Shown piece by piece: positions 3,294 through 62,909 of a stretch of 64,000 nucleotides of DNA (positions are counted from its first letter, which is position 1; each line of letters starts with the position of its first letter). A program made the translations under genes and the position numbers. Source of the DNA: Minisyncoccota bacterium. GTDB taxonomy: Bacteria > Patescibacteriota > Minisyncoccia > UBA6257 > 2-01-FULL-56-20. The stretch spans positions 51,762 through 115,761 of the forward strand of contig JARLIC010000137.1 in assembly GCA_031291905.1 (NCBI GenBank), in the 5' to 3' direction. Below the pieces are notes generated by a model. The model saw only the letters and a list, made by a program, of their open reading frames with translations. It had not been told where the DNA came from and searched no databases.

Positions 3294-3308
3294 ATCGACG
3301 CCGACGAG

Positions 3309-4578: not shown

Positions 4579-4580
4579 TC

Positions 4581-6941: not shown

Positions 6942-6954
6942 TGGGTCGTCCTCG

Positions 6955-19019: not shown

Positions 19020-20669
19020 ATGGCTTGGGATTCAGCGTACTATTCGTCGGTCAACGAAGATCTCTTGCGATTCATCCCGCCGGATAGTAACCGCGTGCTT
19101 GAGGTGGGATGCGGAACCGGGGCGTTGGCCTCGCGGTTCAAGCGGATCAATCCGAAGTGCGTGTACTGGGGAGTGGAGGCTGACCAAGATGCGGGCGAAG
19201 CAGCTCACAATAATCCTGATCTCGATATCATGTTTTCAGAAACAATCGAGCACTTCCTAGGTCGATATCCCACGGAGTGCGAGAATCCCGATTGCGTCGT
19301 ATTCGGCGACTGCCTCGAACACCTTGTCGATCCACACGCCGTTCTCAAGAAATGCGTTGAATGGCTTAAGCCCAACGGCTCCGTCGTCGCCTGCGTTCCC
19401 AATGTTCAGCATTGGAGCGTGATTCAAACACTGATCCAGGGCCAATGGCCTCGAATGGGATCAGGATTGTTTGATGCGACGCATCTCAGTTGGTTCACCA
19501 AGCAAAGCCTGATTGAGATGTTCGAGGCGGCGGGGCTAACTATCGCGAAGATCGTCCCTCGCAATATCGCGCCAGGCGGCGAGCGTCTCATCGACGCCGT
19601 GAAGGAGTTTGGGCTTACCGAGGACGTCGGACGGTTTAGGGAGGGATGCCAGGCGTATCAATGGCTGATCCACGCCGTCAAGGGCGACGTCCCAAGCCGT
19701 AAAGTTCTCATCCGTGGCTTCACCGCCGAAGGATGCTGCGCCCGACCGCGTCTCACGGAGCCGGGCGGAATGATCAATACGATTCCCGGCTTCCGCTACT
19801 CCGAGGTCACGACACAGGTCGAGCCGGGGGAATCCGTGGTCGTTGTACGTCAGCGATTCAACATCACCGAAGCCGCCATCCGCGAACACCTGAAGCACGG
19901 GCAGTTGATTATCGGCGAATGGGACGACGACCCGTGGTACGAAGGGTTCAACGGCAAGCTCAAGACGCCATCCGTCGAATGGGCTCTCAAGGCTTGCCAC
20001 GCGATCCAGGTCAGCACCGAAGCCATCGCCGAACTCGTGCGACCGATCAACCCGAACGTCGCAGTGTTCCCGAATCAGATCGCAGCCGTGGGACCAGAAC
20101 GAGAGTACGTCGAGTCCGACGTAATCCGGGTCTATTTGGGAGGCCAGAGGAATAAAGGCGACTGGGACAAAGTGATCCCCTTCGTCAACGGCATGTCCGC
20201 CGCGAGCCCGGATGTTTTTCACTTCGTCGTCGTGCACGATAGGGATCTCTACCAGGCCCTTGAAACGCATAGGAAGACATTTTACGCCTTCCAGCCTTAC
20301 GAAAAGTATCGGGCCATACTGAGGACGTGCGATGTGACGATTGCTTCTCTAGCCAACACGCGGTTCAATCGGTGCAAGAGCGATATAACCGTAATCGAAT
20401 GCGCGGTGGAAGGCGTGGCCGTGATTCCGTGCAATCCAGAGTCCAGCATGTACACTGAGCTAAGGTCTTGGAAATACAACAAGAAACCAAGCGAGTTCGC
20501 TGAATCCCTTCGCAGCCAGGGACGAAGAGATCGCAGTTGGTCCATCAGCAACCGCATGCTCTGCGACCACTACAAGAAGCGAGCCGCATGGTACGACGGC
20601 TTGCTCGACGACAAGGCTGAATTGGATCGCCAGTTGTTCGAGCGGCTGCCGGAACTTCGTCCTACTTGA
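19020..20669 (+). CDS. class I SAM-dependent methyltransferase fused to GT-B-like glycosyltransferase domain
   Basis: MTase motif I VLEVGCGTGALA and post-I, II and III motifs are present. The C-terminal half has an ..ECAVEGVAVI.. GT-B-like region. GC is lower than in neighbours and the strand is opposite. Confidence 0.65.
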   Translation: MAWDSAYYSSVNEDLLRFIPPDSNRVLEVGCGTGALASRFKRINPKCVYWGVEADQDAGEAAHNNPDLDIMFSETIEHFLGRYPTECENPDCVVFGDCLEHLVDPHAVLKKCVEWLKPNGSVVACVPNVQHWSVIQTLIQGQWPRMGSGLFDATHLSWFTKQSLIEMFEAAGLTIAKIVPRNIAPGGERLIDAVKEFGLTEDVGRFREGCQAYQWLIHAVKGDVPSRKVLIRGFTAEGCCARPRLTEPGGMINTIPGFRYSEVTTQVEPGESVVVVRQRFNITEAAIREHLKHGQLIIGEWDDDPWYEGFNGKLKTPSVEWALKACHAIQVSTEAIAELVRPINPNVAVFPNQIAAVGPEREYVESDVIRVYLGGQRNKGDWDKVIPFVNGMSAASPDVFHFVVVHDRDLYQALETHRKTFYAFQPYEKYRAILRTCDVTIASLANTRFNRCKSDITVIECAVEGVAVIPCNPESSMYTELRSWKYNKKPSEFAESLRSQGRRDRSWSISNRMLCDHYKKRAAWYDGLLDDKAELDRQLFERLPELRPT

Positions 20670-20955
20670 TGATCGCCAGGACGTTCTCTTCTTTCACCAG
20701 AAGCAGCTTCTTGCCGTCGACCTTGAATTCCTCGCCCGCGTACTTCGTGAACAAGACCGTGCGGCCGGGCGAGAAACCGACTTCGATCCGCTCGCCGTTC
20801 GATGCGATCCGACCCGGACCGACCGCCAAAACTGTGCCCTTGTTCGGCCTGTCCTTGGCGACGTCCGGGAGGACGATGCCGCCCTGCGAAACGTCTTCGG
20901 TCGCGTCACGTTCGATGATGCACCAGTCAAGCGTCGGAACGAGAGTCATCAACAA
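20662..20955 (-). CDS. groES: co-chaperonin GroES (Cpn10)
   Basis: GGIVLPDVAKDRPNKGTVLAVGPGR..NGERI...KYAG.E.K.DGK..L..EENVLAII aligns along the full length with the GroES pattern. Confidence 0.85.
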   Translation of the reverse strand: MLMTLVPTLDWCIIERDATEDVSQGGIVLPDVAKDRPNKGTVLAVGPGRIASNGERIEVGFSPGRTVLFTKYAGEEFKVDGKKLLLVKEENVLAIIK

Positions 20956-20965
20956 AACTCCAGGG

Positions 20966-21196
20966 GCCTATGAAATGAGCGATCAGCGATGCGGGACGTG
21001 CGAGCACTTTGGACATGAACCGCATGCCAAAGCAGAGGGATCCCCAGGATACTGCTATCGAATCCAGGAGTATTATTGCCCAGGCCCAGAATTCAAAGAC
21101 CTGGCGTGCGTGTCGGCCGACGTCGGCGGCATCTTTTATTGCCGCCCCGAATTCGGCTGCATTCTCTGGGAAAAGAAGGAGAAGAATGATGAGTGA
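20966..21196 (+). CDS. small Cys-rich protein, paralog A (MSDQRCGTCEH...FGCILWEKK)
   Basis: ATG at 20966. Shares conserved N- and C-termini with two downstream paralogs. Confidence 0.55.
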   Translation, partial: AYEMSDQRCGTCEHFGHEPHAKAEGSPGYCYRIQEYYCPGPEFKDLACVSADVGGIFYCRPEFGCILWEKKEKNDE

Positions 21197-21410
21197 CCAG
21201 CGATGCGGGACGTGTGAGCACTATTGTAGAAGTGATCTACAGGCTGAAGAGAACACGTACGGCACGTGTGATCGAATAGGAACAGAAGGTGGCCCTTGGC
21301 CAAGCGAAGACAATCTGGCGTGCGCTGTCGACAGGCAGGACGGGGCGGATCTTCGCTGCATGCCAACCTTCGGCTGCGTACTCTGGGAATCAAAGGAGTC
21401 AGCGAAATGA
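21186..21410 (+). CDS. small Cys-rich protein, paralog B
   Basis: Start ATGATGAGTGA overlaps paralog A's stop. Sequence MMSDQRCGTCEHY...FGCVLWESK. Confidence 0.55.
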   Translation: MMSDQRCGTCEHYCRSDLQAEENTYGTCDRIGTEGGPWPSEDNLACAVDRQDGADLRCMPTFGCVLWESKESAK

Positions 21411-21691
21411 GTGACCAGCGATGCGGGGCGTGCAATCGATTCGGCGGTCTTCTCAGAAAGGATTACATGAGAGAAGACTATCCAGAGCCTTCTGAGAGAT
21501 TCAGCTTTGGGTACTGCCGAGCGATCAAACTCAATCGAATTCCCAATAGCAATGAACCCAGCGGCGAGCCGGATTGCCTCGCGTTCACAACCGACGTAGA
21601 AGACTATTCAGCAGCATTGATGGTTCGCCCCAATTTCGGCTGCGTCCTCTGGGAGCCTAAACGAACACCGGATCTTCCGGCTGCGGATTGA
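21407..21691 (+). CDS. small Cys-rich protein, paralog C
   Basis: ATGA overlap with paralog B. Sequence MSDQRCGACNRF...FGCVLWEPK. Confidence 0.55.
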   Translation: MSDQRCGACNRFGGLLRKDYMREDYPEPSERFSFGYCRAIKLNRIPNSNEPSGEPDCLAFTTDVEDYSAALMVRPNFGCVLWEPKRTPDLPAAD

Positions 21692-32886: not shown

Positions 32887-33318
32887 TTAGGCGCCGACTT
32901 CGGTCCAGCGTTCGTCGTCCCAATCGCTCGTCATCGCCTCGTAGGTTCCGTCGTGCTGGGCCGGCGGCGGCGGCTGGATATTGTGCTTGGCCCCGTAGAT
33001 CGCCATCGCACGAACGACGAGCGGCGGCGGATTGCCGGTGGTCGCGGTCAGCGTGTCCCACCACTGGTGCGGGCCGTCTCCCTCGATCGCGACCTGGCGG
33101 CAGAAGTCGCACCGGAGGGCGGCCAGATCGTAGCGTCGCAGGAGTCGGGTTGATCGCTGTGTCGACCGGGTGCAGCGAGGGCAGGGGGGGCCGTCGTGCT
33201 TGATCACGACCTGGACTTCATCGTCCGGCACGTCGGCTTCGACGGCTTCAATAATGGCGTCTTCGGCATCGCGGGGCTTCGGGGGACGGCCGCGACGTTT
33301 GGTCTCGATCGTGCTCAT
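32887..33318 (-). CDS. basic zinc-ribbon protein (KRRGRPPKP; CPRC...CDFC)
   Basis: Overlaps the TerL stop by 4 nt. Confidence 0.45.
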   Translation of the reverse strand: MSTIETKRRGRPPKPRDAEDAIIEAVEADVPDDEVQVVIKHDGPPCPRCTRSTQRSTRLLRRYDLAALRCDFCRQVAIEGDGPHQWWDTLTATTGNPPPLVVRAMAIYGAKHNIQPPPPAQHDGTYEAMTSDWDDERWTEVGA

Positions 33319-35864
33319 GCTACCTCTATGTCCGTGTCATGCCACGAGTCGGGCCACCAGCGGGGGTCTTGCCAATCTTGCTGGGCGGCTCGATCTTTTT
33401 CGATCTTCTCCAGCCACGCCCGCTCCAGCCGTTCGCGTTCCATGCGTTCGCGTTCTTCGGGGGGGATGGCGGCTGGGCCACGCTTCTGGACTTCAAGAGA
33501 GGCGTAGGCGAGCACGTCGACTGTGTCGTCGTGGGCACCGTTAGGAAAGGTCATCAACTCGGTTTCGAGGTTGTCGAGTTCCGGGTGATGCTTGGGAAAC
33601 CAAATCTGACCGGCTTCCATGCGTATCTGGGCGTCTACGCTTCGGGCTATTTTATCGACGTTCCCGGTCTTGAGCGACTGGATCGTCAAGCCTTGCTTTC
33701 GAGCCGCTTTAATGACTAGGTTTTGCGCTGCAACATCTTCGATTCCACAATACGACGCCTTGTGCTTGTCCATCATCGCACGAATAGACGGGACGAGCTT
33801 ATCGCCGGTCATCTGTTCGCGATGCATGTCAAGAAGAATCAGGTCGCTGTCCGGCGTCACAGCCCACGCGCCGATGCATGTGTAGTCCGCACTGGTTCTT
33901 GTAGAAAATGCGAGGTCTACCGCCAGGAAAATTCGGCAGTGATCGAGGCTGAATGATCGTGTTTCAAGCCTGATGTAGTTTTCGTGCCGATCATAGTATT
34001 TGAAATCTGATCGCCGAAATAATCCACCACCCTCGGGGGAGGGGCGTTGCTGATACACAGAATTAAAAAGATGTTTTTGGGTTGCTTTGACACGAAGCAG
34101 GTATTCTTCGTTGAAGTGCTCGGGCCAGAGGGCTTCGCCTCGCTTGCGTCCCATCGGATCGTTATCTTCGGCCAAAGCCGGAAGATTATAGACGACCCAT
34201 TCCTCGCCCGTCTCTTTCGCTCGATCCAGGATCTTGCCGACCATGTCGGCTTCATGCCACCTCTGCATGACGACGACGATCGACCCACCGGGCTCAAGCC
34301 GCGTGTACGCGGTTCCGACGTACCAGTTCCAAGCCTTCTCGCGAAGCGTCTCGCTGAACGCATCCTCTTGCTTCTGGACGTCGTCAAGCACAAGTAGGTG
34401 CGCTCCCTTCCCGAGCAACGCGCCCCCCATGCCGACGGTCTGCATTCCGCCGCTGTGGCCCTTGAGCATCCAGCGATCGGCGGCCTTGCTATCCTGGCGG
34501 ATCTTGACTCCGAAGTATTTCTCGCCGTCCTCTTCGATCAGGTCGCGTACCTTGCGTCCCCACTCGGAAGCGAACTCAGCCTCATACGACGCCAGGATCA
34601 CTTTCTTGTCCGGGTTCCTCCCCAGATACCACGCCGGGAAGTACATCGACGTCATTGTGCTATTGCACGTCGGAATCATCGAGCGGCCACACAAAAACAT
34701 GTGGCTCGGTGAGTCGACTTCGATGCAAACAGTGTCGCCGGTTCCGACGTACGTGGCGCCGATGTATCGGTTCGGCTGCTTAACGCCGTCGCGACATCGC
34801 GGCGACTTCCGAGGCGACTTGCAGGCCCCTGCTTTATAGAACATGACGCGGAATTTGGGTCCGCAATCTTTTCCATAAAGCGTAGCTCTTCCAAGTATCA
34901 GGCTCGCCTTGGTTCCGAGTGAACGAACGAGTTCAAGGCAGCCTTCAGCCAATGCTAGGTCTGTCGAGCAAAACTCGACCTGGCCATCCGGAGCGACATG
35001 GCCATCCGTGTCGCAAAGCCCACGAAGCAACTCAAACCTTTGGCTCTCGCTCGCTCGCAGGTATTGGTTCGGGACATGCTTGTTCTTCAGCAGGCCGAGT
35101 TCGCGAAGCTTTCCGCCAAGGCCCATGACCCCAAATACGTTTTCGACCGACCGATCTCTCGTCTCGTAGCCGAGCCGCGAAAGTTCTTCCTTGAACCACT
35201 CAGTATCCAGGCCGTTGCACGTGATGCCGCAGTTCTCGGAGCAGCCGTTTCCAAGCCAAACACCGAGGACGTACGGGTCGATCGGCAAGTCGGCATCGGG
35301 AAGCTGAAGTGCCCCCTGCTTGCGGACCATAAGCCTCTTGTTTCGAGGCTTCGAGAGATAGGCGGTGTCTTTGACGTGGAATATATCGCGAGTCTTCGCC
35401 TTGCTGACGACCCACTCGTGATTTTGGTCGGCGAAGATTTCATCGCCGTCGTCGGTTGTTACTCGGTAGATCGGGCGGTTCTTCCAGACGGGAGACTTTG
35501 CCACAACGTTACAGGGCTGACCGTCTTCATTAAAGACCTGATCGCCCGGCTTCAGTTCCCCTATCGTCGTCCAGCCGGAAGGCGTCGGGATCGGGGTGCT
35601 CAGGGCTAAGGCTTTCCCGTGCCTCGGTGGCACCGTCACAATTAATCGTTTGATCCGGCCCTCCGCCACATCCATCATCTTCTGCGTCAAGAAGAGAAGA
35701 TGTTTCGCCGGCTTCCACTGAAATTCGCTCGAAAGATGTGCATAGTGCGCGGGGCTCAGGTTCGCTATATGCTTCTCTAGGCTGAATCGCTCCTGCGAGT
35801 TGAGTGAGGCCGCCAAGGAGCGTAAGGACTCGATCTGTTGCGGCGTCTCCATTGAGGTGATCAA
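33315..35864 (-). CDS. terminase large subunit interrupted by an intein
   Basis: N-terminal ATPase region runs through the Walker A up to VTVPPRHGK. It resumes as STMTSMYFPAWYLG.. after ~317 inserted residues. C-terminal RNase-H-like nuclease (FLAVDLAFS...DSDLILLD). Confidence 0.85.
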   Translation of the reverse strand: MITSMETPQQIESLRSLAASLNSQERFSLEKHIANLSPAHYAHLSSEFQWKPAKHLLFLTQKMMDVAEGRIKRLIVTVPPRHGKALALSTPIPTPSGWTTIGELKPGDQVFNEDGQPCNVVAKSPVWKNRPIYRVTTDDGDEIFADQNHEWVVSKAKTRDIFHVKDTAYLSKPRNKRLMVRKQGALQLPDADLPIDPYVLGVWLGNGCSENCGITCNGLDTEWFKEELSRLGYETRDRSVENVFGVMGLGGKLRELGLLKNKHVPNQYLRASESQRFELLRGLCDTDGHVAPDGQVEFCSTDLALAEGCLELVRSLGTKASLILGRATLYGKDCGPKFRVMFYKAGACKSPRKSPRCRDGVKQPNRYIGATYVGTGDTVCIEVDSPSHMFLCGRSMIPTCNSTMTSMYFPAWYLGRNPDKKVILASYEAEFASEWGRKVRDLIEEDGEKYFGVKIRQDSKAADRWMLKGHSGGMQTVGMGGALLGKGAHLLVLDDVQKQEDAFSETLREKAWNWYVGTAYTRLEPGGSIVVVMQRWHEADMVGKILDRAKETGEEWVVYNLPALAEDNDPMGRKRGEALWPEHFNEEYLLRVKATQKHLFNSVYQQRPSPEGGGLFRRSDFKYYDRHENYIRLETRSFSLDHCRIFLAVDLAFSTRTSADYTCIGAWAVTPDSDLILLDMHREQMTGDKLVPSIRAMMDKHKASYCGIEDVAAQNLVIKAARKQGLTIQSLKTGNVDKIARSVDAQIRMEAGQIWFPKHHPELDNLETELMTFPNGAHDDTVDVLAYASLEVQKRGPAAIPPEERERMERERLERAWLEKIEKDRAAQQDWQDPRWWPDSWHDTDIEVA
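34662..35612 (-). mobile_element. intein with LAGLIDADG homing endonuclease inserted in the terminase P-loop
   Basis: Hint N-blocks ALALSTPIPTPSGWTTIGELKPGDQVFNEDG and ..IFADQNHEWVV. Two LAGLIDADG motifs: YVLGVWLGNGCS and LLRGLCDTDGHV. C-terminal block ..VCIEVDSPSHMFLCGRSMIPTCN followed by S. Confidence 0.7.
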
Positions 35865-40316: not shown

Positions 40317-40664
40317 TCACCGCGGTAATGCGTTCCAGTTACGGATCGCGATCCGCACTGAATCACCTTTGGAGCCTCGCATATAGCAGTTCGGGCAATG
40401 AACTTGCCAGAAACCAAAGTTCACGAAACAAGCTAGTCTGCCGTTGCCCCAAGTCCCATCGCAACCGCACCCAGGGCAAGGATCGATCGACGGCACTTCG
40501 GATTTGACAGCCTTAACATGGACGTTGATCGCTGCCATCCGTTCGTTGAACGCCCGGCCGTGCTTTTTCTTGCCCTCCGCATCGAGGGACTTGAACCACG
40601 CCTTGAGTTCCTTGGGCGAGTTAATGTCGGCGGGGATCATCTCAACCTCATTGTTGTCAGACAA
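40317..40664 (-). CDS. Lar-family-like restriction alleviation protein
   Basis: PCPGCGCDG....C......HCPNC.......DSVRIAIRNWNALPR fits the Lar pattern (CPFCG...C..CG....eAi.aWNrR). Confidence 0.55.
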   Translation of the reverse strand: MSDNNEVEMIPADINSPKELKAWFKSLDAEGKKKHGRAFNERMAAINVHVKAVKSEVPSIDPCPGCGCDGTWGNGRLACFVNFGFWQVHCPNCYMRGSKGDSVRIAIRNWNALPR

Positions 40665-41040: not shown

Positions 41041-41349
41041 TTACTCAGTTCGCTCGATCGCCGCTATCGCCCACATCAGACATTGCTCAAGATTCGTCAG
41101 CGCCGATGACTGCTCACGCGACGCGGATGAGTGGTCGACGATGGACAAGGCGAGATTCTTGGCATCGTCCCGAAGTAACGCGAGAGGGATAACCTTGTCA
41201 GCCCGAACAGTGAGCTTTGCGGCGAACCGCTTCTCGACTTCTTCGCGGAATCGCTCGGCGCGAGTCTTTCCGTCATCGATATGAACAGCGTAGATGGGTG
41301 GCGGGTTATCTCTCACCGAACTTGGAGCCGGGTACACAGGGTTCATCAA
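41041..41349 (-). CDS. hypothetical protein
   Basis: ORF. Confidence 0.35.
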   Translation of the reverse strand: MMNPVYPAPSSVRDNPPPIYAVHIDDGKTRAERFREEVEKRFAAKLTVRADKVIPLALLRDDAKNLALSIVDHSSASREQSSALTNLEQCLMWAIAAIERTE

Positions 41350-41948
41350 AGCTCTCCTTCAAAAACCGATCCGCCGAAGTAGTCGATCACATCGAACTCA
41401 CGCGGGCGGGCGAACGGAATGTCGTCTTCCTGAAAAGCGTCCACCTCGGCCTGGCTGACAGGAACCGTTCGCCCCTGCCCACCCTGCCCGTTGTATCCGC
41501 CGCCGCCACGACCTTGCGGTGCGGGACCGCGACCCTGGGGAGGACCGCTGCGCGACTCGGCTTGCGGCTGGCGTTCGTTTCCGCCTTGGCTGCGCGGTCC
41601 GTCTTCGTCGCGAGCCTTAGCCTCAAGGTTCTGGACCCGGTCGGCGTTCACCTTGATTTTGCTCCGTTTCTCGCCGGTCGCCTTGTCGTCCCACTGGTCC
41701 ATCTTGAGCGAGCCTTCGACGAAGATCAGGTTGCCCTTGTGCAAGGTATTGCAGGCCCGCTCCGCCGCCGCACCCCAGACGGTCGCGTCGATATAGAGGA
41801 CTTCTTCCTTCCACTCGTCGTTCTTGTCCTTCCATGACCGATTGACGGCCATGCGGAGTTCGGTCACGGCCGATCCGCTTGGAATGCGGCGCAACTCGGG
41901 CTCGAAAGTCAGTCGGCCCATGAGTTGGACCTTATTTAAGTCAGCCAT
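41346..41948 (-). CDS. ssb: single-stranded DNA-binding protein
   Basis: N-terminal OB pattern MADLNKVQLMGRLTFEPELR..SGSAV..LRMAVNRSWKDK. Gly/Gln-rich tail ending EDDIPF plus ~20 extra residues. Confidence 0.8.
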   Translation of the reverse strand: MADLNKVQLMGRLTFEPELRRIPSGSAVTELRMAVNRSWKDKNDEWKEEVLYIDATVWGAAAERACNTLHKGNLIFVEGSLKMDQWDDKATGEKRSKIKVNADRVQNLEAKARDEDGPRSQGGNERQPQAESRSGPPQGRGPAPQGRGGGGYNGQGGQGRTVPVSQAEVDAFQEDDIPFARPREFDVIDYFGGSVFEGEL

Positions 41949-41964: not shown

Positions 41965-42306
41965 TTAGGAATATTGACCCGTCGGCAGGTCGTCGCCGTT
42001 GATCACGCATTCGTACGACGCTATGTTCGAGGACGTAATTTTCGCCGAAAAGTCGGCGATTCGAAATTTCCCCGACATACTGTACAACCGATTGCGAGAC
42101 GTGAGAATGCAATAGGCTGTAGCCTTCTGGCTCTGCAAGTACTCCAGGAGACCGTCGGGCAAATCGCTCAACCCGAAGACCCCCTTGACGCTGCCACCGA
42201 CGCCGCCGTTGGTAAGCCTCACGTCGATAGTATGAATCCCCAGTGCGACCGGCCCTACGCCATCGAACTCTATCCTCATCACCGCCGAACCACCATGACT
42301 ATCCAT
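41965..42306 (-). CDS. hypothetical protein
   Basis: Start MDSHGG is preceded by GGGAGGGTGAG. Confidence 0.4.
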   Translation of the reverse strand: MDSHGGSAVMRIEFDGVGPVALGIHTIDVRLTNGGVGGSVKGVFGLSDLPDGLLEYLQSQKATAYCILTSRNRLYSMSGKFRIADFSAKITSSNIASYECVINGDDLPTGQYS

Positions 42307-42307
42307 C

Positions 42308-42454
42308 TCACCCTCCCGCCATCTTAATAACGAACATTCCAACGACATAAACGAGCATCGCCGCAACCAGGCCGATCATCAAGAACCCGTTAGGCGCGGG
42401 CCGAAAAGGATCTATAACCGGCTGAGGTCGCTCAGGCTTCGGCGGAATCTCCAT
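42308..42454 (-). CDS. 48-aa hydrophobic peptide (MEIPPKPERP...LMIGLVAAMLVYVVGMFVIKMAGG)
   Basis: Not in the ORF track (<60 aa). Its ATG is preceded by the same GCGGGAGGGTGAGATGG element that also forms its stop (AGG-TGA). Confidence 0.35.
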   Translation of the reverse strand: MEIPPKPERPQPVIDPFRPAPNGFLMIGLVAAMLVYVVGMFVIKMAGG

Positions 42455-42544
42455 CTCACCCTCCCGCATACACCAGAAACCCCATTGCCACCACGAACAC
42501 CATCATCGCCACCGAGACGGCCGCCAGATGCCAGTTGAAGCGTC

Positions 42545-42931
42545 TCACAGCCCGTACCTCCCAGCCATCTCATGAACCCCTGAATCCGCCGCAACCTCGC
42601 AAACCGCCTGCTGCAACTCCTCCAGCGTCATCGCCCGACCCAGCGCGAGAATCGACTGATACGTCTCTTCCACCTGATCGCCGCAGTCTTCCGCCTTCAG
42701 CACCTTCTTGACGATGCGACGCAGCATGAACCGCTGGATGAAATTCGGATTGCGGCACTTGTCTAACGCGGTGCTCGATTTCCAGCACTCAAACAGCAGG
42801 ATCGCGATTTTCAAGATCGCGACGATGATCGCCACGGTTACGACGACGCTTCCTGGCTTGCTCTGAGCGTCGCGGGAGATGGTCGGCATGTTGGCGATGG
42901 TGCGTTCGGCGAGTCGGTCGATTTGGGTCAT
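42545..42931 (-). CDS. membrane protein
   Basis: TM segment VVVTVAIIVAILKIAILLF. Confidence 0.4.
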   Translation of the reverse strand: MTQIDRLAERTIANMPTISRDAQSKPGSVVVTVAIIVAILKIAILLFECWKSSTALDKCRNPNFIQRFMLRRIVKKVLKAEDCGDQVEETYQSILALGRAMTLEELQQAVCEVAADSGVHEMAGRYGL

Positions 42932-43305: not shown

Positions 43306-43785
43306 TCACGCCGCGTTACTATCGGCCTCCAATGGGTAAAACTTGCCGCCCATTCTATAGCCGATAACTACCCCCAGGGTGTTCCGCGTCTCTTGTTTAA
43401 TGTGCTTGAACGCCTCCGGGGATCTCGCCATTACATGGCGTATGTTATACAGTCCTAACTTCTCTAGACGTTTGTGGGACAACAGCATCCCGCCGTTTGC
43501 GTCAGCCATGCCAGTGATAATGCGAACCCATTCTTGAATGGGCTTTGGTTTTTCCTGCTTCTTCTTTACAGAGATAGGATTCGGATCGCACTGATCCCGT
43601 GCAGGCTTCTGCTTCAGCCCTACGCCGCCGAATTCCGCTTTCGAGCACGACGGCCATGATGGGTACAAGAGAGCGACCCATCCTTTTCGACGACGAAATT
43701 CAGCCACGTCGTCCGGACGGCCGAACGGATCTTCCTTGATCCGATCGGCATAGGCCCTGGCTTCCCGATACTTCATAACAAGCAT
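43306..43785 (-). CDS. hypothetical protein
   Basis: ORF. Confidence 0.35.
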   Translation of the reverse strand: MLVMKYREARAYADRIKEDPFGRPDDVAEFRRRKGWVALLYPSWPSCSKAEFGGVGLKQKPARDQCDPNPISVKKKQEKPKPIQEWVRIITGMADANGGMLLSHKRLEKLGLYNIRHVMARSPEAFKHIKQETRNTLGVVIGYRMGGKFYPLEADSNAA

Positions 43786-46217: not shown

Positions 46218-47329
46218 TTACTTATTGATCGGCATAACAACATACGTATAATTTTCGCCCGACCTGAACACCACCGCGTTCTTCGGGTCCAGCAAATCCA
46301 CCGTCAGGACCGTATCCATCTCCAGTGACCGCAACGCTTCGACGACGTACTGCGGGTCCATCGTCAGCGACATTCCATCCCCATCGAAGCCGCCCAGCAA
46401 AGGCAACTCGATGCACGATTGGCCGACGTCTGAGGCGTTGCTGGTCAACTCCACGCCATCGGACGAGAACTTGAACGTGACGCCCCGGCTTTCCTCGCTG
46501 GTCACGATCGAAGCCTGTTGCGTGGCCGACAAGAACGACGCCACGTCCAGCGGGATCGTGTACGTCGAGCTTTTGGGAAACACATCCTGATATCGCGGGA
46601 ACCGGCCTTCCACCAGCCGACTGTAGATCACGCTGTTCGACGACCGAACCACGACCGCAACGCCCTTAAGGAAGGCGACGTGAATCTGATCGCCGTCGCC
46701 GGACAGAGCCTTGTCGATCAGCTTCAGAGCTTTGACCGGAAGAACGCATTGCGAATCGTCCACGTCGCCGACCCGCTCAGCAGGAACCGTGGCTCGTGCC
46801 AGACGGCGGCCGTCGGTTCCGACGAACGAGACGCTGTCGTCCGCCCGTTCGACCAGGACGCCGCCGAGAGCGTATCGAGCCGAGTTCAGGTCGGTCGCAA
46901 AAGCCGTCCTCTTGATCAGCTTCTTCAAGTCCGAGTCGATCAGGACCATGTACGATTCGCTGTCAAACCCGGCTGGCTCGGGGAACAAACTTGGTTCTTC
47001 GTTCGGCAGGTTGAACCGTGACCGCTTGCCCCGGATCAGCAACTTGTCATCATCGGCTTCGATGCTGATCTCGTCGTCGATCGACGTCCGCAGGATTTGA
47101 CTGACGCGGTCGGTCGGCAGGATAACATGGCCGTCTCGATCGAACTTCACGCCAAGCAGCGTCCGCCGCACCCCGACTTCCAGATCCGTCGCGATCAATG
47201 TGCATTCGTCGTTGTCGATGACAAGTTTCACGTTTTGCAGGATCGGCTTGGGTGATCGAGCCGGCACGACGCTGGCGACCGTTGTAAACGCTTCGAGCAA
47301 GGCTTTTCGGTTGAACGTCGCTTTCAAGG
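46218..47329 (-). CDS. dnaN: DNA polymerase III beta subunit (sliding clamp)
   Basis: N-terminus KATFNRKALLEAFTTVASVVPARSPKPILQNVKL....LIATDLEV and C-terminal YTYVVMPINK are present. Likely TTG start at 47329 with GAGGTGG upstream. Confidence 0.8.
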
Positions 47330-47815
47330 TTCCACCTCGTGTGTCGGGCCATCTGATAGAAAGGTAGCCATCTGGTAATAGAACTTCTCTCGCCCCTCGA
47401 AGTCGTCTTCGACGGCGCATGCTTCGACCTTGCCGGCGTCCAAAAACATCGCCGCCGCACAGCCAGCCTGATCGATTTCGAGGTATACAGTGCGGTACTT
47501 ATGGGATTCGGTGTGTTTGAACATCATGCCGATTCCACCCTGGACGCAAGGTGACAGCCGCGTCAGGAATTGCATTCCTGGGTATTCAGCGAACAAGAAG
47601 TACTGAGCGACATCCAAAGCTTCCAGCGTCGGCGTCGGTGCGTCATATCCGTCCCACCCTGGCTTGAGCATCGTCAGCTTCACGAGCTTGGATTTCCAGT
47701 CGATCACGCTTCCCCTGACTCCCTCTGATCTCGATCCGCAAAAAACGTCTCGTAATCTGCTTTCGTCAACGACAGCAACTCGTCGTCCGGCATGCTGGCG
47801 AGGTAGGTGTTCCAC
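47324..47815 (-). CDS. hypothetical protein
   Basis: ORF. Confidence 0.35.
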   Translation of the reverse strand: MEHLPRQHAGRRVAVVDESRLRDVFCGSRSEGVRGSVIDWKSKLVKLTMLKPGWDGYDAPTPTLEALDVAQYFLFAEYPGMQFLTRLSPCVQGGIGMMFKHTESHKYRTVYLEIDQAGCAAAMFLDAGKVEACAVEDDFEGREKFYYQMATFLSDGPTHEVEP

Positions 47816-49304: not shown

Positions 49305-49574
49305 CACGTCTCCCCTTAGAATTTGCATTCAGGTAAGAAGATTAGATATGGCTAAACCAAATACTAAAACCTAATCCTTCGGAGTCAAAAAGACAATACT
49401 TCGCACGGCCAGCGTGCCCGAACCTTCTTTATATAGGGAATCCATCAAAGATCGTGAATGCAAGCGGCCGATTGTCTTGCTTTGCTAAAAATCTTGCAAT
49501 CTGTCTTGACGTTCGGAATAAACGGCGGTAGGATCTGGCTCGGGCGACAAGAACGTTGGAATGGCAAGGAGAAC

Positions 49575-50741
49575 ATGCGAATGAGTGAGCTGATCGTGGA
49601 GGTGTGCGAAGTACTGGAAGTCCTGCCGCATGGGAATGCGGATCGGCTTGAGATCGTCACGGTGAAAAATTGGCCCGTGGTTGTCCAGAAGGGCCTTCTC
49701 AAGCAAGGCGATCCCGTCGTTTTCTTTCCGCCGGACAGCGTCTTGACCGAAGAACTGGCCGATCGGCTCGGCATCCGGAAGTACCTCGCCCCGGTCAAGA
49801 CCGGCGAATCCGTCACCGGCTATCGGGTCCGGGCCACTCGGCTTCGCGGTGTCGCCAGTTTCGGGACGATCGACCATGAGATCCCGGAAGGCTTCGCGGT
49901 CGGGGCCGACGTGGCGGAGCACTACGGCGTAACGAAGTGGGAGCCGCCGGCACGGGGTGGCGACAATTGGGCTGGCGGAGGGCTCAAGGGCAGCCAGTAT
50001 CGCGTCACCAATGCGGCGTTCCACCGATACAAGAGCATCAGCAATATTCGGCACAATCGCAATGCGTTCAAGGACGGCGAGATGGTCGTCCTCACGGAGA
50101 AGGTCCACGGCTCCAATATGAGGTCCGGCCTCATCAAGACGCCGTACGACCCCGGAACCGGCTTTATTGGTTTCTTGCGGCGGATTTACTGCCGGGTGTT
50201 CGGTTCGCCGGAGCCGACCTACGAGTTGATGGCCGGGAGCCACAACCTTCCTCGCGACGTCTATAGCGAAGACGGCAGCCTCACAGAGTACGCCCTCCCG
50301 ATCGGCGAACCGAACGTCGTCGGCCTGCTCAAGTACCTGAGCAACGGCGAGCACGACGTCATCCTGTTCAGCGAACTGTTCGGCAGCGGCGTCCAAGATA
50401 TGACGTATGGCCACAAGGACGGCAGTCGTGGCTTCCTGGCCTTCGACATCACGATCGACGGACGATATCTGGACGCGGTTGAGAAGTACGACCTGCTGTC
50501 CCGCTATCAGGTACCGACCGTCCCCGTGCTTTACACGGGACCCTTCTCATGGGATGTCGTCGAAGCCTATACCGATGGCCCGACCACGATCTGTGATCCC
50601 AAGGATGCCGGCCCGTTCAAGGGTCGCGAGGGCGTCGTCGTGACGTGCTTGACGGAGCCTCGGGACTATCCAGGCCGGAAGATTTACAAGTCGATTTCGG
50701 CGGATTATTTGGCCCGGAAGAATGCCACGGATTCCCACTGA
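49575..50741 (+). CDS. ATP-dependent RNA ligase (Rnl family) with N-terminal tRNA-binding-like OB domain
   Basis: N-terminus EVLEVLPHGNADRLEIV...GDPVVFFPPDSVL resembles the HPNADkL tRNA-binding domain. Ligase motif I LTEKVHGSN matches Rnl EKIHGTN. Later EGVVV and KIYK fit motifs IV and V. AAGGAGAAC upstream of the ATG. Confidence 0.65.
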   Translation: MRMSELIVEVCEVLEVLPHGNADRLEIVTVKNWPVVVQKGLLKQGDPVVFFPPDSVLTEELADRLGIRKYLAPVKTGESVTGYRVRATRLRGVASFGTIDHEIPEGFAVGADVAEHYGVTKWEPPARGGDNWAGGGLKGSQYRVTNAAFHRYKSISNIRHNRNAFKDGEMVVLTEKVHGSNMRSGLIKTPYDPGTGFIGFLRRIYCRVFGSPEPTYELMAGSHNLPRDVYSEDGSLTEYALPIGEPNVVGLLKYLSNGEHDVILFSELFGSGVQDMTYGHKDGSRGFLAFDITIDGRYLDAVEKYDLLSRYQVPTVPVLYTGPFSWDVVEAYTDGPTTICDPKDAGPFKGREGVVVTCLTEPRDYPGRKIYKSISADYLARKNATDSH

Positions 50742-56640: not shown

Positions 56641-57516
56641 GCAAGACGAACTCGGATCGCGACCGGCTCAACTTCATCGGCCAATCCTATGCCACCGTCA
56701 ACCATAACGGCCATGCGTGGGAAGTCAGGTTCATGAACGGCCAATGTGCCGTTCACAAGCAGCTACGCAAAGCCGTGGACGAGGCTATGCGATTCACCAA
56801 AGCGATAACCCGGGACGGAGATTGAATCCATGTCCACCACCGCATTTTTGATCTATGCTTCTTTCGTGGCCGGAGCCGCCTGTGCGGTCGCCTTCTCTTG
56901 GGTCGTCTCCAAGATCACCTTCCGTCCCAAAAAATAGACACCAACAGCAAGATATTTCGCTTGCTTTTTGGTCGGCGTCTTGCTAAAGTATAGAAAGGAG
57001 AAGATCAATCGTAACAGCAAGACGGAGGGACAGTTTGAGCGTTGTGAAAGAGGCTGTTTTCGTCACGGTTCTGATCGTGGCGTGGTACGCGGCGTGGCTG
57101 GCGATCGATTTCGTCAGACCCATGGATACGGCGGAAGCCAGGAAGTCGAATCCCGGGGCCGTAACGCCCGAGAACGCCCCGCTTCTTGGGCCTGGAATCG
57201 AGCGAACGATCGAAGCGTTGGGCGGATCAGTGGAGGAAGGGGTTGAGCCTTGAGTGAAGATTTCAAGTCGGTCATTGCGTTCGAAAAGGCTTGCGGCAAG
57301 GAATTGGACGCAGTGGAGGGAGAGTAAGATGGCAAAGATGCTGAGGATCGTGGTTCGGTCCTATATTTTCGACGAGGTCGACATCGCCGAAGACGAGTGG
57401 AATGCGATGAGCCGCAAAGACAGGGAAGACATGGCTCGCACGGTTTTGCGAGGCGCGGGCATCTGTGACATCGAGTTTAACGAAGAGTATCTGGACGAAG
57501 GGGAGGACGACTGAAC

Positions 57517-58098: not shown

Positions 58099-58530
58099 GT
58101 GTCGCGATGGGAATCGAATCGAAACTCAGGGAGCCAGAGATTGAGTATCCTGACCGGAATAAGTCCGTCCCAATGGGAGCGAGACCATATCATCGCCGTA
58201 AGGCAGGGCGTTAAGTACATCGCCGAGCACGATGCTGTGCCGGACACACCGATGTGGGACATGCTGGTTCATCGTCACGAGATCAATACCGCGAGGTTCG
58301 ACCACTACCATCACGTCGTCGGCAACGCTCTCGAAGAACTAGCCAGGCGACGCCTGACCGAATTCACCTGCCCGCCGCCCTACGACCACAAAGCCCCGTG
58401 CATCCCGTCGATCGAATGCCGGCCCGAAGTCCCGCTCCATCCCCAGGTCGTGCCTGAGCCGGGTTCGGTGATCAGCCTTGTTATCGGGCTCGTCCTATTG
58501 ATGGCTTTTGGCGTGAGGAGGATGCGATGA
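58099..58530 (+). CDS. hypothetical protein with C-terminal TM segment
   Basis: VISLVIGLVLLMAFGV. Start uncertain. Confidence 0.3.
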   Translation: MSRWESNRNSGSQRLSILTGISPSQWERDHIIAVRQGVKYIAEHDAVPDTPMWDMLVHRHEINTARFDHYHHVVGNALEELARRRLTEFTCPPPYDHKAPCIPSIECRPEVPLHPQVVPEPGSVISLVIGLVLLMAFGVRRMR

Positions 58531-58881: not shown

Positions 58882-59496
58882 ATGGCCGCAAAGACCACCA
58901 GGATCAAGAGGCTGACCAAGAAGAAGAAGGATGAGGCTGCGAAGAACGTCCCGTTGGCCAAGCACATCGCGAAGAAAATGGGATGGCGAGATCTTCCGAT
59001 GGAGGATCAGATCCAAGAGGCGTCCGTCGGCCTGTGCAAAGCGGTGAACGGATTCGATCCATCCAGGGGAACGAAGCTGAGCACCATGATCGGCCGATGT
59101 GCGATGAACGAGATCTTGTCTGCGAGGCGGAAGTACGGTTTGATCCGGATACCAGACTACCTCCAAGAGAAAGCGAACGCCGAACACGGCCTCCAGAAGC
59201 ACGTCAAACAGGCCGGAAAGCGGCTCAGTATCGACGGGATATCGGAGGACTCGGAATTTCATCCAAGGTGCCCCGAAGACGACGACTCCGAGTTCGGCTG
59301 GAAGGCGATGCGGGCGGTTCGATGGGCCGTCCAGAAGCTTCCGCCGATCGAGCGGGACGTGATTCGCGGGCTGATGTTCCGCCAGGAAACAGCCCGCGAA
59401 CTGGGCAAGAAGCACGGCGTCCACGTCTCGGTGGTGCGTCACCTGAAAGACACAGCCTTGGCGAAGTTGCGAGCGAGTTTGGTTAAGCACGTGTAA
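58882..59496 (+). CDS. sigma-70 family sigma factor
   Basis: Region 2: PMEDQIQEASVGLCKAVNGFDPSRGTKLSTMIGRCAMNEI. Region 4: IERDVIRGLMFRQETARELG...VSVVRHLKDTALAKLR. Confidence 0.75.
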   Translation: MAAKTTRIKRLTKKKKDEAAKNVPLAKHIAKKMGWRDLPMEDQIQEASVGLCKAVNGFDPSRGTKLSTMIGRCAMNEILSARRKYGLIRIPDYLQEKANAEHGLQKHVKQAGKRLSIDGISEDSEFHPRCPEDDDSEFGWKAMRAVRWAVQKLPPIERDVIRGLMFRQETARELGKKHGVHVSVVRHLKDTALAKLRASLVKHV

Positions 59497-59511: not shown

Positions 59512-60072
59512 ATGGCCAAAAAGAAGCCGACCGCGAAAGGATTGATTCCCTTTGACCTGCCATTGAATGAGGAACAAAAAGAACTGGCGGCGTCGTGCGA
59601 GAGGATGGTGGTGAACATAGCGAAGAAGTCGGCGAATCGGAACAACAACTTCGACGACCTGATCGACGCCGGGCAGATGGGCCTCATACGAGCCGCCCAG
59701 ACATACGACGAGGCGAAAGGTGCGTTTTCGACGCACGCGTATCGGTGGATTTTAGCGAAAGTGCTGAGAGCAAGACATGAGCTAAACAAGAACAACGCCA
59801 GAAAGGATTACGCATTCGACGTGCGGAATCTTCCGTCTCGCCCGGCCGAAGACACCTGGTTTGACCCAGATGTCGTATTGCAAGCCTTCGACTCCCTTCC
59901 CAGGCAACTTCAGGACGTTGTTCGACTCAGGGTCTGGGATGACGACGCCAAGAAGCTGGATAAGGTCGCCAGGCGGCTGGGCTGCGTAAAACAAACGGTC
60001 TTAACCCGCCAAGCCAAGGCGTTCGGAATCCTCCGCGACACGCTCTGGCGATACGCACGGGAGGCTTCATGA
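59512..60072 (+). CDS. sigma-70 family sigma factor (second, adjacent)
   Basis: Region 2: FDDLIDAGQMGLIRAAQTYDEAKGAFSTHAYRWI. Region 4: LQDVVRLRVWDDDAKKLDKVARRLGCVKQTVLTRQAKAFGILR. Confidence 0.75.
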   Translation: MAKKKPTAKGLIPFDLPLNEEQKELAASCERMVVNIAKKSANRNNNFDDLIDAGQMGLIRAAQTYDEAKGAFSTHAYRWILAKVLRARHELNKNNARKDYAFDVRNLPSRPAEDTWFDPDVVLQAFDSLPRQLQDVVRLRVWDDDAKKLDKVARRLGCVKQTVLTRQAKAFGILRDTLWRYAREAS

Positions 60073-61774: not shown

Positions 61775-61965
61775 CCACCGGCATCACCAAGGCTGCCCTG
61801 GATCAACTGCCGCCCTTCGAGGCTTGGGTGATCAAACGCCGGCTTGTCGACAAAGAGAACTCGTGGAGGCGACTGGAATCTGAATGCGGTCTAGCCGTCT
61901 ACCGTTTAAAGCAGATCGAGCGTGAGGCTTTACTGAAGTTGTTTAATCCCGAGGGACAAGTATGA
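61771..61965 (+). CDS. small sigma-region-4-like HTH protein
   Basis: ECGLAVYRLKQIEREALLKL resembles a region 4.2 helix-turn-helix. Confidence 0.35.
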   Translation: MTTGITKAALDQLPPFEAWVIKRRLVDKENSWRRLESECGLAVYRLKQIEREALLKLFNPEGQV

Positions 61966-62909
61966 CCCGCCCCCCGATCCCGCTTCTTGCCCCGAACGTC
62001 ACTTGCGGCTTCCCGTATTTCGATCCCGACGTCTTCGAGACAGGCTTGGGCGTCCAGTATTTCAAGGAAGCCGGCGTCGCACTGATCTCGCGTCCTAACG
62101 TGAATATCGCGGCGGCTGCCGGGTTCCTGGACAGCTTTGACGACAGCCTTGGGTTTCGCGAGTACCTGTTCGACCCCGTGAATATCGACGACGGGGCGCA
62201 AGCGGCCAAGTACGCGGGACAGGGGTGCTATCAAAGCTATAGTGCGAAGAGGACCTGGAACAAGGACGCCGGAAGGTATCTCGACCACATCAAGGAGTTA
62301 GGTCACGGCTCCGTTCTTGAAGCGGCCAGTTATGGGTTCCAGTTCTGGGGAGTCGACCGAGCACTTACGCATGAGTTGGTCCGGCACCGGATGCTCAGTT
62401 TTTCACAGACATCGCAACGTTTCTGCGATGACAAAGCGTTGCGATTTGTTGAGAGGCCGGAGTATCAGCCCGAAAGATTGCCGGACGACGCGGGCGACGA
62501 ACTTAAGAGAGATGTCGCGTGGGCAGACACGAAGTTTCAGCAGATCATTAATAGTTTCGTGAGTCATTACGAATTATCCGCCGAGAATCTTGGCTCCGCT
62601 CGCGACCACGGCCATCCGCTGCTTCAAGGCGGCTCGGCGACCGAGAAGCGTAAGCATCTCAATCAGGTCGCGAGAGAATGCCTTCCCAATTGTTGCGAGG
62701 CCCCGATCGTCGTCACCGGCAACGCGAGGGCTTGGCGCGGATTCCTGGACCAGCGAGCCACGCCGCACGCCGACGTGCCGATCCGCGAGTTGGCCATCAA
62801 GGTTCTGAAAGCGTTATTGGTGACGAGTCCATTGTTGTTCGGCGACTATGAGATCGCGAAGCAGGATGATGGAACCGAGGCCGCTACGACCGCCTACCGC
62901 AAGGTCTGA
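61962..62909 (+). CDS. thyX: flavin-dependent thymidylate synthase
   Basis: ThyX signature RHRMLSFSQTSQR (RHRxxxxxxxSxR). Confidence 0.8.
   Translation: MTRPPIPLLAPNVTCGFPYFDPDVFETGLGVQYFKEAGVALISRPNVNIAAAAGFLDSFDDSLGFREYLFDPVNIDDGAQAAKYAGQGCYQSYSAKRTWNKDAGRYLDHIKELGHGSVLEAASYGFQFWGVDRALTHELVRHRMLSFSQTSQRFCDDKALRFVERPEYQPERLPDDAGDELKRDVAWADTKFQQIINSFVSHYELSAENLGSARDHGHPLLQGGSATEKRKHLNQVARECLPNCCEAPIVVTGNARAWRGFLDQRATPHADVPIRELAIKVLKALLVTSPLLFGDYEIAKQDDGTEAATTAYRKV

Follow-up and report, generated by a model that had tools for sequence, protein, structure and literature searches.

Do very short hydrophobic open reading frames (ORFs) joined by a reiterated Shine-Dalgarno (SD)-stop-start element form a set of genes, and is the element that joins them anything more than an ordinary gene junction? 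The question is raised by a 64,000-nucleotide (nt) stretch of DNA filed under a Minisyncoccota bacterium (NCBI GenBank assembly GCA_031291905.1, contig JARLIC010000137.1, positions 51,762 to 115,761 of the forward strand), referred to here over its full length as the window. Two micro-ORFs of 30 and 48 codons, p30 and p48, lie on its minus strand between genes for proteins of 128 and 113 amino acids (aa). An initial annotation had described a chain of linked small ORFs at this site. The linkage holds and the order had to be revised, the chain running 5' to 3' on the minus strand as 128 aa, 30 aa, 48 aa, and 113 aa, followed by the gene for a single-stranded DNA-binding protein (SSB). In the best reading of the sequence, the chain would consist of translationally coupled small genes encoding a family of single-pass phage membrane micro-proteins. 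p30 and p48 are most likely real membrane micro-protein genes. It is also probable that all four genes are co-transcribed within an early operon for DNA metabolism and host takeover, in a rather large phage that has not been cultivated, that they are coupled, and that the first three encode membrane proteins.

Two micro-ORFs as candidate genes

The chain begins with the ATG-initiated 128-aa gene (42545..42931, minus strand), which was also called as a gene on locus L013. Its last codons, GCT GGG AGG TAC GGG CTG TGA, supply the SD of p30: the protein ends in ...MAGRYGL, and its Gly-Arg codons GGG AGG form a GGGAGG (42557..42562, minus strand) that lies inside the 3' end of the gene and 8 nt before the GTG start of p30. 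This GTG overlaps the upstream stop codon (GTGA). p30 (42456..42548, minus strand) encodes MRRFNWHLAAVSVAMMVFVVAMGFLVYAGG, a peptide with a basic N terminus, one transmembrane (TM) helix, and an AGG tail. p48 (42308..42454, minus strand) encodes MEIPPKPERPQPVIDPFRPAPNGFLMIGLVAAMLVYVVGMFVIKMAGG, in which a Pro-rich N-terminal segment of 24 aa precedes one TM helix and an AGG tail. The chain closes with the gene (41965..42306, minus strand) for the 113-aa protein, a soluble, beta-rich ORFan. Intergenic gaps along the chain are -4 (GTGA), +1 (TGAgATG), and +1 (TGAgATG) nt, and GGGAGG stands 8, 5, and 5 nt before the GTG of p30, the ATG of p48, and the ATG of the 113-aa gene, respectively.

The GTG at 42548 is favored as the start of p30 by the GGGAGG at 8 nt, by the GTGA overlap, and by the choice of a gene caller. 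The initial annotation had placed a 16-aa hydrophobic peptide (MMVFVVAMGFLVYAGG) here, starting at ATG ATG near 42506. That start was rejected for lack of an SD at usable spacing; the hydrophobic stretch itself exists, as the C-terminal half of the GTG-initiated 30-aa product. A 53-aa version of p48 starting from the ATG at 42469 was rejected on the same ground.

The coding potential of the micro-ORFs was evaluated with a codon log-odds model trained on 40 long ORFs of the window, under which segments of true genes score 0.34 +/- 0.2. p30 scored +0.32 and p48 +0.19 bits/codon, and the 128-aa gene scored +0.39 bits/codon; for all three, the annotated frame was the highest of six. No other frame or strand at the micro-ORFs scored as coding, and the periodicity of GC content at third codon positions (GC3) in p30 plus p48 resembled that of the flanking genes. 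GC contents at codon positions 1/2/3 were 0.58/0.40/0.79 for the 128-aa gene, 0.63/0.40/0.80 for p30, and 0.65/0.40/0.62 for p48, and the Kyte-Doolittle (KD) hydropathy maxima over 19 residues (KD19) of the three products were 3.08, 2.64, and 2.71. A six-frame scan of the 64 kb for ORFs of 20 to 90 aa preceded by an SD of at least 4 nt and containing a hydrophobic 17-mer (KD of at least 2.2) returned three only: p48, p30, and an ORF at 57035-57253.

The same DNA was assembled independently in Logan (SRR23300985), with 100% identity over 9.7 kb. The gene caller run on the Logan assemblies predicted exactly p30 and p48, with p48 found on four contigs. In the NCBI annotation of the same contig, the 113-aa and 128-aa genes carry consecutive locus tags, and p30 and p48 were apparently skipped. 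Their absence from the ORF track, to which the initial annotation had drawn attention, reflects a length cut-off only; both are predicted by the Logan gene caller.

A ParB-like protein encoded close to the chain led to a homologue, 56% identical, on a 6.5-kb contig (L019) with a syntenic arrangement: the ParB-like gene, a gene for a 159-aa protein (56% identical), a run of small genes, the SSB gene (66%), and, later, an Acb2-like gene. Directly after the 159-aa gene, and coupled to it through ATGA, a 30-codon ORF (2635-2727) encodes MTDFDRRLPIYIAALFTLTAAMAFIVFQGG. It aligns with p30 without gaps, and 10 of the 30 residues are identical. The Smith-Waterman (SW) score is 46, compared with 18.8 +/- 3.9 for shuffled sequences; the in-register similarity has a p of 2e-5 against shuffles that leave Met1 and the GG tail in place and a p of 0.003 when only the TM segment is shuffled. 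The L019 30-mer leads into the next TM-protein gene through GGGAGGGTGAaGTG, and the form GGGAGGGTGA-n-start is common to both phages. Over the stop/start junction, 16 of 20 nt are identical (CAGGGAGGGTGAaGTGGAGA in L019 and GCGGGAGGGTGAgATGGAGA in the window), compared with 49% identity for the DNA of the p30 body. The following start is kept as GTG in L019, where the spacer base is changed.

From its position, its length, and this alignment, we read the L019 30-mer as a syntenic p30 orthologue of equal length. The gene after it encodes a 57-aa TM protein that starts with Met-Glu, as p48 does, and that has no detectable homology to p48 or to the 128-aa protein. Between the 159-aa and SSB genes, the window carries 80/100-aa, 128-aa, p48, and 113-aa genes, and L019 carries 57-, 61-, and 75-aa genes. 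In a third lineage (L020-L027), different small genes are found, and two consecutive TM micro-ORFs of 34 and 32 aa with 4-nt overlaps follow the SSB gene (L021, 4218-4417, plus strand). This comparison indicates that p30 and its junction into the following membrane-protein gene are conserved and that the rest of the interval from the 159-aa gene to the SSB gene is hypervariable.

Relatives of the locus proved rare. Among 80 further metagenome loci with related SSBs, none had a homologue of any chain member. A blastn search of GenBank phages with 2.1 kb of the locus gave no match, nor did searches of IMG/VR with the 113-aa, 128-aa, ParB-like, and large terminase (TerL) proteins and the p30 alignment, or of GTDB genomes with the 159-aa alignment and a window-specific 36-mer. 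The 159-aa alignment recovered one distant multi-copy locus from IMG/VR (L109; IMGVR_UViG_3300022555_000010, 152 kb), where three consecutive long ORFs (4899-8308, plus strand) match the C-terminal part of the 159-aa protein of the window (43306-43785). In a local search these multi-copy domain matches had E values of 1e-28 to 4e-39.

Several observations weigh against the reading of p30 and p48 as genes for functional peptides. Spurious short ORFs within long genes score as well as p30 in 6% and as well as p48 in 14% of cases, so the codon scores are not decisive for ORFs this short. The conservation of p30 rests on a single pair, L019 being the only informative relative. The p30 dN/dS is about 0.7 with dS saturated and hence uninformative, so the peptide appears weakly constrained beyond its length, hydrophobicity, and tail. 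Compared with 1.84e9 representative proteins, p48 matched itself and, marginally, two TM segments; p30 and p48 matched nothing in PHROG, Pfam, NCBIfam, or PADLOC. A homologue search of 5.8e9 proteins with the 128-aa protein returned only the query, and the homologue search with the 113-aa protein likewise returned it alone. The chain as a whole had no family, defense-library, or structural match in sequence searches of Pfam, PHROGs, PADLOC, NCBIfam, and PDB.

For the two larger proteins there is little further to go on. The 128-aa protein is single pass, with a TM segment at about residues 29 to 47 (VVVTVAIIVAILKIAILLF) and a basic, helical C-terminal domain, and nothing in Pfam, PHROG, PADLOC, or PDB exceeded threshold. 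Its residues 65 to 122 gave two independent sub-threshold matches to the C-terminal region of Pab1020-type RNA ligases (PF18330, E = 0.006; TIGR01209, E = 0.018). The same phage encodes an RNA ligase at 49458-50741, and the ligase-like matches of the 128-aa protein are probably noise. The 113-aa protein had no family or PDB match. AlphaFold2 single-sequence models of the 113-aa and 128-aa proteins were unusable, with pLDDT values of 46 to 47 (47 for the 113-aa protein).

Could p30 and p48 then be chance ORFs in a non-coding spacer, or remnants of a decayed larger gene, next to a repeat that has no translational role? They are very short, their codon statistics are not decisive, and they were skipped by the NCBI pipeline, all of which such an origin would explain. 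It would not readily give three successive strong SDs, each correctly spaced from a start codon that abuts the previous stop. Nor would it account for the gene-like codon periodicity, for a window-wide scan that singles out these two ORFs and one other, or for an orthologous 30-codon ORF with a conserved junction in L019. We consider a chance origin very improbable.

Probable coupling along the chain

Translational coupling needs gene overlaps or very short gaps and is enriched among genes for subunits of complexes (Huber et al. 2019, PMC6728339; Huber et al. 2023, PMC10666635). The chain resembles the termination-reinitiation pairs described by Huber et al. in that its genes are co-directional, are separated by a -4 overlap or a 1-nt gap, and have the SD inside the 3' end of the upstream gene. 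Stop and start codons on the same strand overlap or lie within a few nt of each other, and the downstream ribosome-binding site falls within the upstream 3' end. Whereas -4 and -1 are the commonest spacings in those pairs, the chain has +1 (TGAnATG) at two of its three junctions, and micro-ORFs take the place of the upstream partner. Across the operon, tight junctions of -4, -1, and +1 nt occur frequently, and GGAGG-type SDs are found before many real genes in the window. No promoter-like site and no convincing terminator-like site was found within the micro-ORF chain (42300-42550); one weak terminator-like match lies inside the 128-aa gene (42823-42801).

From this layout we infer coupling. 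A ribosome terminating on one gene would already be placed at the SD and start codon of the next. Whether by termination-reinitiation or by local re-recruitment, such coupling would tie the four products together in time, in place, and roughly in amount. Ribosomes would restart serially, from the 128-aa gene to p30, then to p48, and then to the 113-aa gene, and the output would be three single-pass membrane proteins and a soluble partner, delivered together. The element that recurs at the second and third junctions would be the same junction written twice, through duplication or, less likely, through selection for the same solution.

The SDs also leave their mark on the peptides. The initial annotation had stated that every upstream peptide ends in AGG-stop exactly on the SD of the next gene. 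That description fits two of the three junctions, the exception being the 128-aa protein with its ...MAGRYGL terminus. The C-terminal Gly-Gly of p30 (Ala-Gly-Gly in the window) may thus be a by-product of the SD that it encodes.

The peptides themselves might be dispensable. In that case, translation of p30 and p48 would matter only as a bridge by which ribosomes leaving the 128-aa gene reach the 113-aa gene, and as a means of setting expression ratios; the peptides would have no function. The comparison with L019 can be read in this way: the p30 body looks near-neutral (49% nt identity, dN/dS about 0.7) while the junction is far better kept (16/20), and the L019 p30, which has no SD of its own, relies on the ATGA overlap. 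However, the length of 30 codons, the TM character, the basic N terminus, and the register of several residues have all been kept between the phages. A pure relay has no need of a hydrophobic helix, such peptides are costly to make, and direct overlap of the flanking genes would couple them without any relay ORF. We therefore regard translation without functional peptides as unlikely, and we favor the reading in which p30 and p48 are made as membrane peptides.

Each copy of the repeated element also places an SD immediately before an in-frame UGA, with a +1 frame that continues into the next ORF (GGG U GAG AUG). The +1 frameshift site of prfB (RF2) has an SD about 3 nt before the P-site codon, followed by CUU UGA C, and it shares with the junctions an SD-like element just before an in-frame UGA with a continuing +1 frame. 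A programmed frameshift of this kind at GGG-UGA-G would fuse p30, p48, and the 113-aa protein into one multi-TM protein, and the exact repeat would then be a recoding signal. Unlike in prfB, every downstream frame here has its own ATG or GTG at SD spacing. At the repeated element, the GGGAGG overlaps the last sense codons (GGA GGG), so that its spacing to the P site is 0 rather than about 3 nt, while a proper start codon stands at the ideal 5 nt from it and is kept in L019. The motif is missing from the first junction of the chain, where stop and start simply overlap as GTGA, and the identical 17-nt sequence joins clearly separate genes in unrelated phages, as described below. We give recoding next to no weight and retain separate, coupled genes as the explanation.

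The reiterated junction and the origin of p48

The initial annotation was correct in reporting the same 17-nt element, containing an SD, an ATG, and a TGA, at two sites: the sequence GCGGGAGGGTGAGATGG occurs as exact copies at 42303-42319 and 42451-42467 on the minus strand, 148 nt apart. The identity extends to 18 nt (GCGGGAGGGTGAGATGGA), with copy A (42450..42467, minus strand) at the junction from p30 to p48 and copy B (42302..42319, minus strand) at the junction from p48 to the 113-aa gene. Over an extended 23 nt, 21 positions match (91%). Each copy consists of Ala-Gly-Gly codons (GCG GGA GGG) containing the SD GGGAGG, then TGA, one spacer base, and ATG, with a distance of 5 nt from the SD core to the ATG in both. 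The tail of copy A is the ATG and first bases of p48, and that of copy B the corresponding bases of the 113-aa gene. The counterpart of copy A in L019 is CAGGGAGGGTGAAGTGGAGA.

In the window, this recurrence stands out. Only three families of exact direct repeats of at least 18 nt are present in the 64 kb, and matches to the 17-mer with up to three mismatches number 3, compared with 0.27 expected from dinucleotide shuffles. Among 9,038 pairs of GGAGG sites, the two copies have the top in-register identity outside the core. They share bases that are not required by SD, stop, or start, namely, the GC before the SD, the spacer G, and the GA after the ATG. The element is thus more than a chance recurrence in the window. 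A candidate third, degenerate copy at the junction from the 128-aa gene to p30 (GAGATGGCTGGGAGG...GTGAGA) was rejected, as it needs an 8-nt indel and its resemblance is driven by the SD only. The element region had no Rfam match at an E of 1 or lower or at the gathering score, and folds of the junctions were no better than those of shuffled sequences (z = -1.4 to +0.7) and were not common to both copies.

Beyond the window, the picture was different. A single exact copy of the 17-mer is present in each of 12 unrelated IMG/VR contigs, and in no fewer than 9 of these it serves identically as an ...AGG-TGA/SD/ATG junction. The upstream ORFs of these junctions are 55 to 424 aa and the downstream ORFs 31 to 346 aa long. 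The upstream proteins are diverse and are not membrane peptides, and the joined genes are unrelated and mostly non-membrane. No IMG/VR contig carried two copies. A mobile or widespread cassette was therefore rejected, the 12 single copies being ordinary junctions of unrelated genes; the search of other phages that the initial annotation had proposed thus turned up a single-copy, everyday gene joint. Nearly every base of the 17-mer is constrained: GGGAGG by the SD, the 5-nt spacing that includes TGA, and ATG followed by G. These data suggest that the 17-mer is a recurrent, near-optimal SD-plus-stop-plus-start solution in GC-rich phages, at which unrelated junctions could arrive by convergence.

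A second chain of small, closely joined ORFs is present in the window at 56830-57515 (plus strand). It contains a 35-aa TM peptide (56830-56937) and a 72-aa TM protein, the third ORF of the window-wide scan (57035-57253; TTG start, SD GGAGGG), followed by a TTGA overlap, a 25-aa ORF, the sequence GGAGGGAGAGTAAgATG, and a 61-aa ORF. GGAGGGAGAGTAAgATG, at 57316-57332, matches the 17-mer with three mismatches. This phage makes general use of membrane micro-proteins and of SD/stop/start junctions.

How, then, did the chain come to contain two AGG-tailed TM peptides in tandem? Anchored at the C terminus, the TM core of p30 (AVSVAMMVFVVAMGFLVY) can be aligned with that of p48 (GLVAAMLVYVVGMFVIKM) with no gap. 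With the AGG tail included, the pair reaches an SW score of 42 (p < 2e-4; shuffles, 19.2 +/- 3.8), and with the tail removed it reaches 31 (p = 0.007); in register, p is 0.014 to 0.018 against shuffles that preserve TM composition. p48 is nearer to the p30 of the window than to the L019 30-mer, as would be expected of a lineage-specific duplicate. These comparisons lend moderate support to paralogy of the two peptides, and p48 probably arose when p30 was duplicated in tandem along with its 3' junction.

Two other sets of tandem small genes are found in this phage group. At 20975-21691 (plus strand), the window contains three tandem Cys-rich paralogues of 73, 73, and 94 aa, which start with MSDQRCG.C and end with ..FGC(I/V)LWE.K. 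Their stop/start overlaps of 8 and 4 nt give exact repeats of 17 to 22 nt with a period of about 215 nt. They have no family match and adjoin a gene for a GroES-like co-chaperonin (20662-20955, minus strand; NCBIfam E = 3e-26, below the curated cut-offs). In L019, the 61-aa and 75-aa genes (2899-3308, plus strand) are clear tandem paralogues (SW score of 86, compared with 22 for shuffles), and their common tail, ...YLTKKE(S/T), encodes the SD of the next gene (AAGAAGGAA and AAAAAGGAG), which is the same principle as in p30 and p48. Tandem duplication of small genes that keeps an SD-bearing tail has thus occurred in two further cases in the phage group.

Some results count against a duplication origin for p48. 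The local alignment of p30 and p48 reaches only a p of 0.08 against TM-composition shuffles, phmmer found no link between the two, and the identity of the junctions has no weight as independent evidence of duplication because the 17-mer is generic. p48 could instead be an unrelated small TM gene, acquired or formed de novo, that ended up with the same optimal junction. Its likeness to p30 would then be one of hydrophobic composition only. The use of the identical 17-mer as an ordinary junction in at least 9 of 12 unrelated phages fits this account. So do the common Val codons, all of which differ at synonymous positions although the junction is identical, and the L019 slot downstream of p30, which holds a non-homologous TM gene. 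On the other side stand the in-register similarity from the C terminus, which persists even against TM-composition shuffles, the adjacency of the copies and their agreement at bases without SD, stop, or start constraint, and the two further instances in which small genes were duplicated with their junctions. Convergence of both the junction and the TM segment is a possibility that we take seriously but consider improbable, and tandem duplication is retained as the probable origin.

The initial annotation had gone further and proposed modular duplication of a coupling cassette. The duplication of p30 with its 3' junction is plausible; a special cassette tied to TM peptides is not what the 17-mer represents. 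A more dynamic version would make the junction a portable adaptor, with recombination or replication slippage between the 18-nt copies adding, deleting, or swapping TM micro-ORFs after p30 while coupling stayed intact. We consider this unlikely. If it were true, L019, where a non-homologous TM gene follows the same junction, would provide one instance of a swap, and the counter-defense region would contain a copy-number-variable, fast-evolving array of membrane micro-proteins.

Genomic context and possible roles of the peptides

The chain lies among genes for DNA metabolism and counter-defense. The order of its neighbors is sliding clamp, C5 methylase, ParB-like, 159-aa gene, chain, SSB, Acb2/Tad1-like, and Lar-like, and the terminase genes begin about 6 kb downstream of the chain. 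The SSB gene (41346..41948, minus strand; PF00436, E = 3.6e-31) starts 16 nt after the 113-aa gene. Directly after it, and overlapping it by 1 or 4 nt depending on the start, a 102-aa ORF (41041-41349, minus strand) matches the Acb2/Tad1 hairpin domain (PF24729, E = 2.6e-9, above the cut-off; phrog_1454) and is a candidate cyclic-nucleotide sponge against CBASS or Thoeris. An Acb2-like gene is also found downstream of the SSB gene in L019. A 107-aa ORF (40317-40640, minus strand) has a weak match to Lar-like restriction alleviation proteins (phrog_599, E = 9e-6). By these family matches, the Acb2-like and Lar-like genes suggest a counter-defense cluster adjoining the micro-ORF chain. Such neighbors favor an early role for the chain over one in lysis.

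Phage peptides of this small size with one TM helix do bring lysis and toxin proteins to mind, and the initial annotation had suggested holin-like activity. p30 and p48 might accordingly form a holin/pinholin pair or act as hydrophobic peptides of the type I toxin kind. Type I toxin peptides include Hok, Fst, TisB, and Ibs, and the hok/mok system couples toxin translation to an overlapping ORF. p30 and p48 are likewise hydrophobic single-TM peptides of less than 60 aa (KD19 of 2.6 to 2.7), and Hok shares with them a dependence on coupling. Unlike type I toxin genes, however, p30 and p48 are embedded in a long phage operon, and no antisense RNA family, RNA structure, or promoter or terminator of their own was evident. 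As for holins, neither peptide matched a Pfam or PHROG holin family, and both lack the charged C-terminal tail that is typical of holins, their TM helix being followed at once by the terminal ...AGG. The approximately 16 kb annotated around the chain (33.3-48.8 kb) contained no lysis gene, and no endolysin or spanin gene lies close by; the neighbors are replication and counter-defense genes. The suggestion of holin-like activity is not borne out, and a lysis or toxin role is highly unlikely.

Phages also produce small membrane proteins, early in infection or from prophages, that act on the host envelope in superinfection exclusion, among them Imm and Sp of T4, SieA of P22, and gp15 of HK97. 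The micro-proteins of the chain resemble these in being small, hydrophobic, encoded outside a lysis cassette, lineage specific, and fast evolving. They differ in that PHROGs and Pfam revealed no sequence relationship to them and in that p30 and p48, with one TM helix each in 30 and 48 aa, are far smaller. Our guess is that the peptides act early at the host inner membrane, perhaps in superinfection exclusion or in interference with the envelope or with defense.

The remainder of the window is in keeping with a large phage. Genes for ThyX, the RNA ligase, a sliding-clamp homologue, a DEDD exonuclease, a DUF5131 protein, and a MazG-like protein are present (coordinates listed: 61962-62909, 49458-50741, and 46218-47420), as are two adjacent genes for sigma-70-family factors (58882-59496 and 59512-60072, plus strand). 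Such a predicted gene content is that of a large phage equipped for its own transcription and DNA metabolism, and the contig in the NCBI record measures 119 kb. The longest ORF for the large terminase (33315-35864, minus strand; 849 aa, TTG start) overlaps the small-terminase gene by about 330 nt, and its N-terminal 50 to 300 residues match not only terminase families but also PHROGs of primase and DnaC-like P-loop proteins. The true start may lie further downstream; otherwise, the ATPase region at the N terminus is an unusual one. The longest exact direct repeat of the window, about 33 nt (11706-11738 and 11907-11939, with a spacing of 201 nt), falls inside a 517-aa ORF (10901-12454, minus strand) and probably reflects internal repetition within a structural protein. 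A 143-aa ORF (58099-58530, plus strand) has a C-terminal PEP-CTERM signal (VPEPGSVISLVIGLVLLMAFGVRRMR; TIGR02595, 19.7 bits with a cut-off of 16). Such a signal, unusual in a phage gene, hints at a Gram-negative host with an exosortase and fits oddly with the 'Candidatus Pacebacteria' label of the NCBI metagenome-assembled genome.

The L019 contig contains a feature with no counterpart in the window. A gene for a Ro60/TROVE protein with a vWA domain (4568-6214) is preceded by a tRNA-like element (4190-4380, plus strand) with a 52-nt insertion in the anticodon loop. The element scores 58.8 bits with the Rfam tRNA model, ARAGORN finds no tRNA in it, and it overlaps a sub-threshold YrlA match (28 bits, E = 8e-4). 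Judged by these matches, element and gene look like a phage-borne Ro60/Y-RNA module.

Fremin et al. reportedly predicted, in 2022, thousands of small novel genes in global phage genomes. Genes with no more than 50 codons commonly escape annotation, and catalogues such as this one and GMSC (PMC11364881), which cover small phage and microbiome genes, report them to be abundant in phage genomes. p30 and p48 differ from the entries of such catalogues (Fremin's and GMSC) in matching no described family. No new mechanism is revealed by the chain, its coupling junction being an ordinary one that appears to recur by convergence in unrelated phages. What it does offer is a clean and partly conserved example of 30- and 48-codon genes that were missed by length cut-offs and by at least one major annotation pipeline. 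It also illustrates how the ribosome-binding site of the next gene can dictate the C-terminal residues of a micro-peptide, here Ala-Gly-Gly. Further, the peptides would define a small new family of phage single-pass membrane peptides, encoded beside Acb2/Tad1-like and Lar-like genes.

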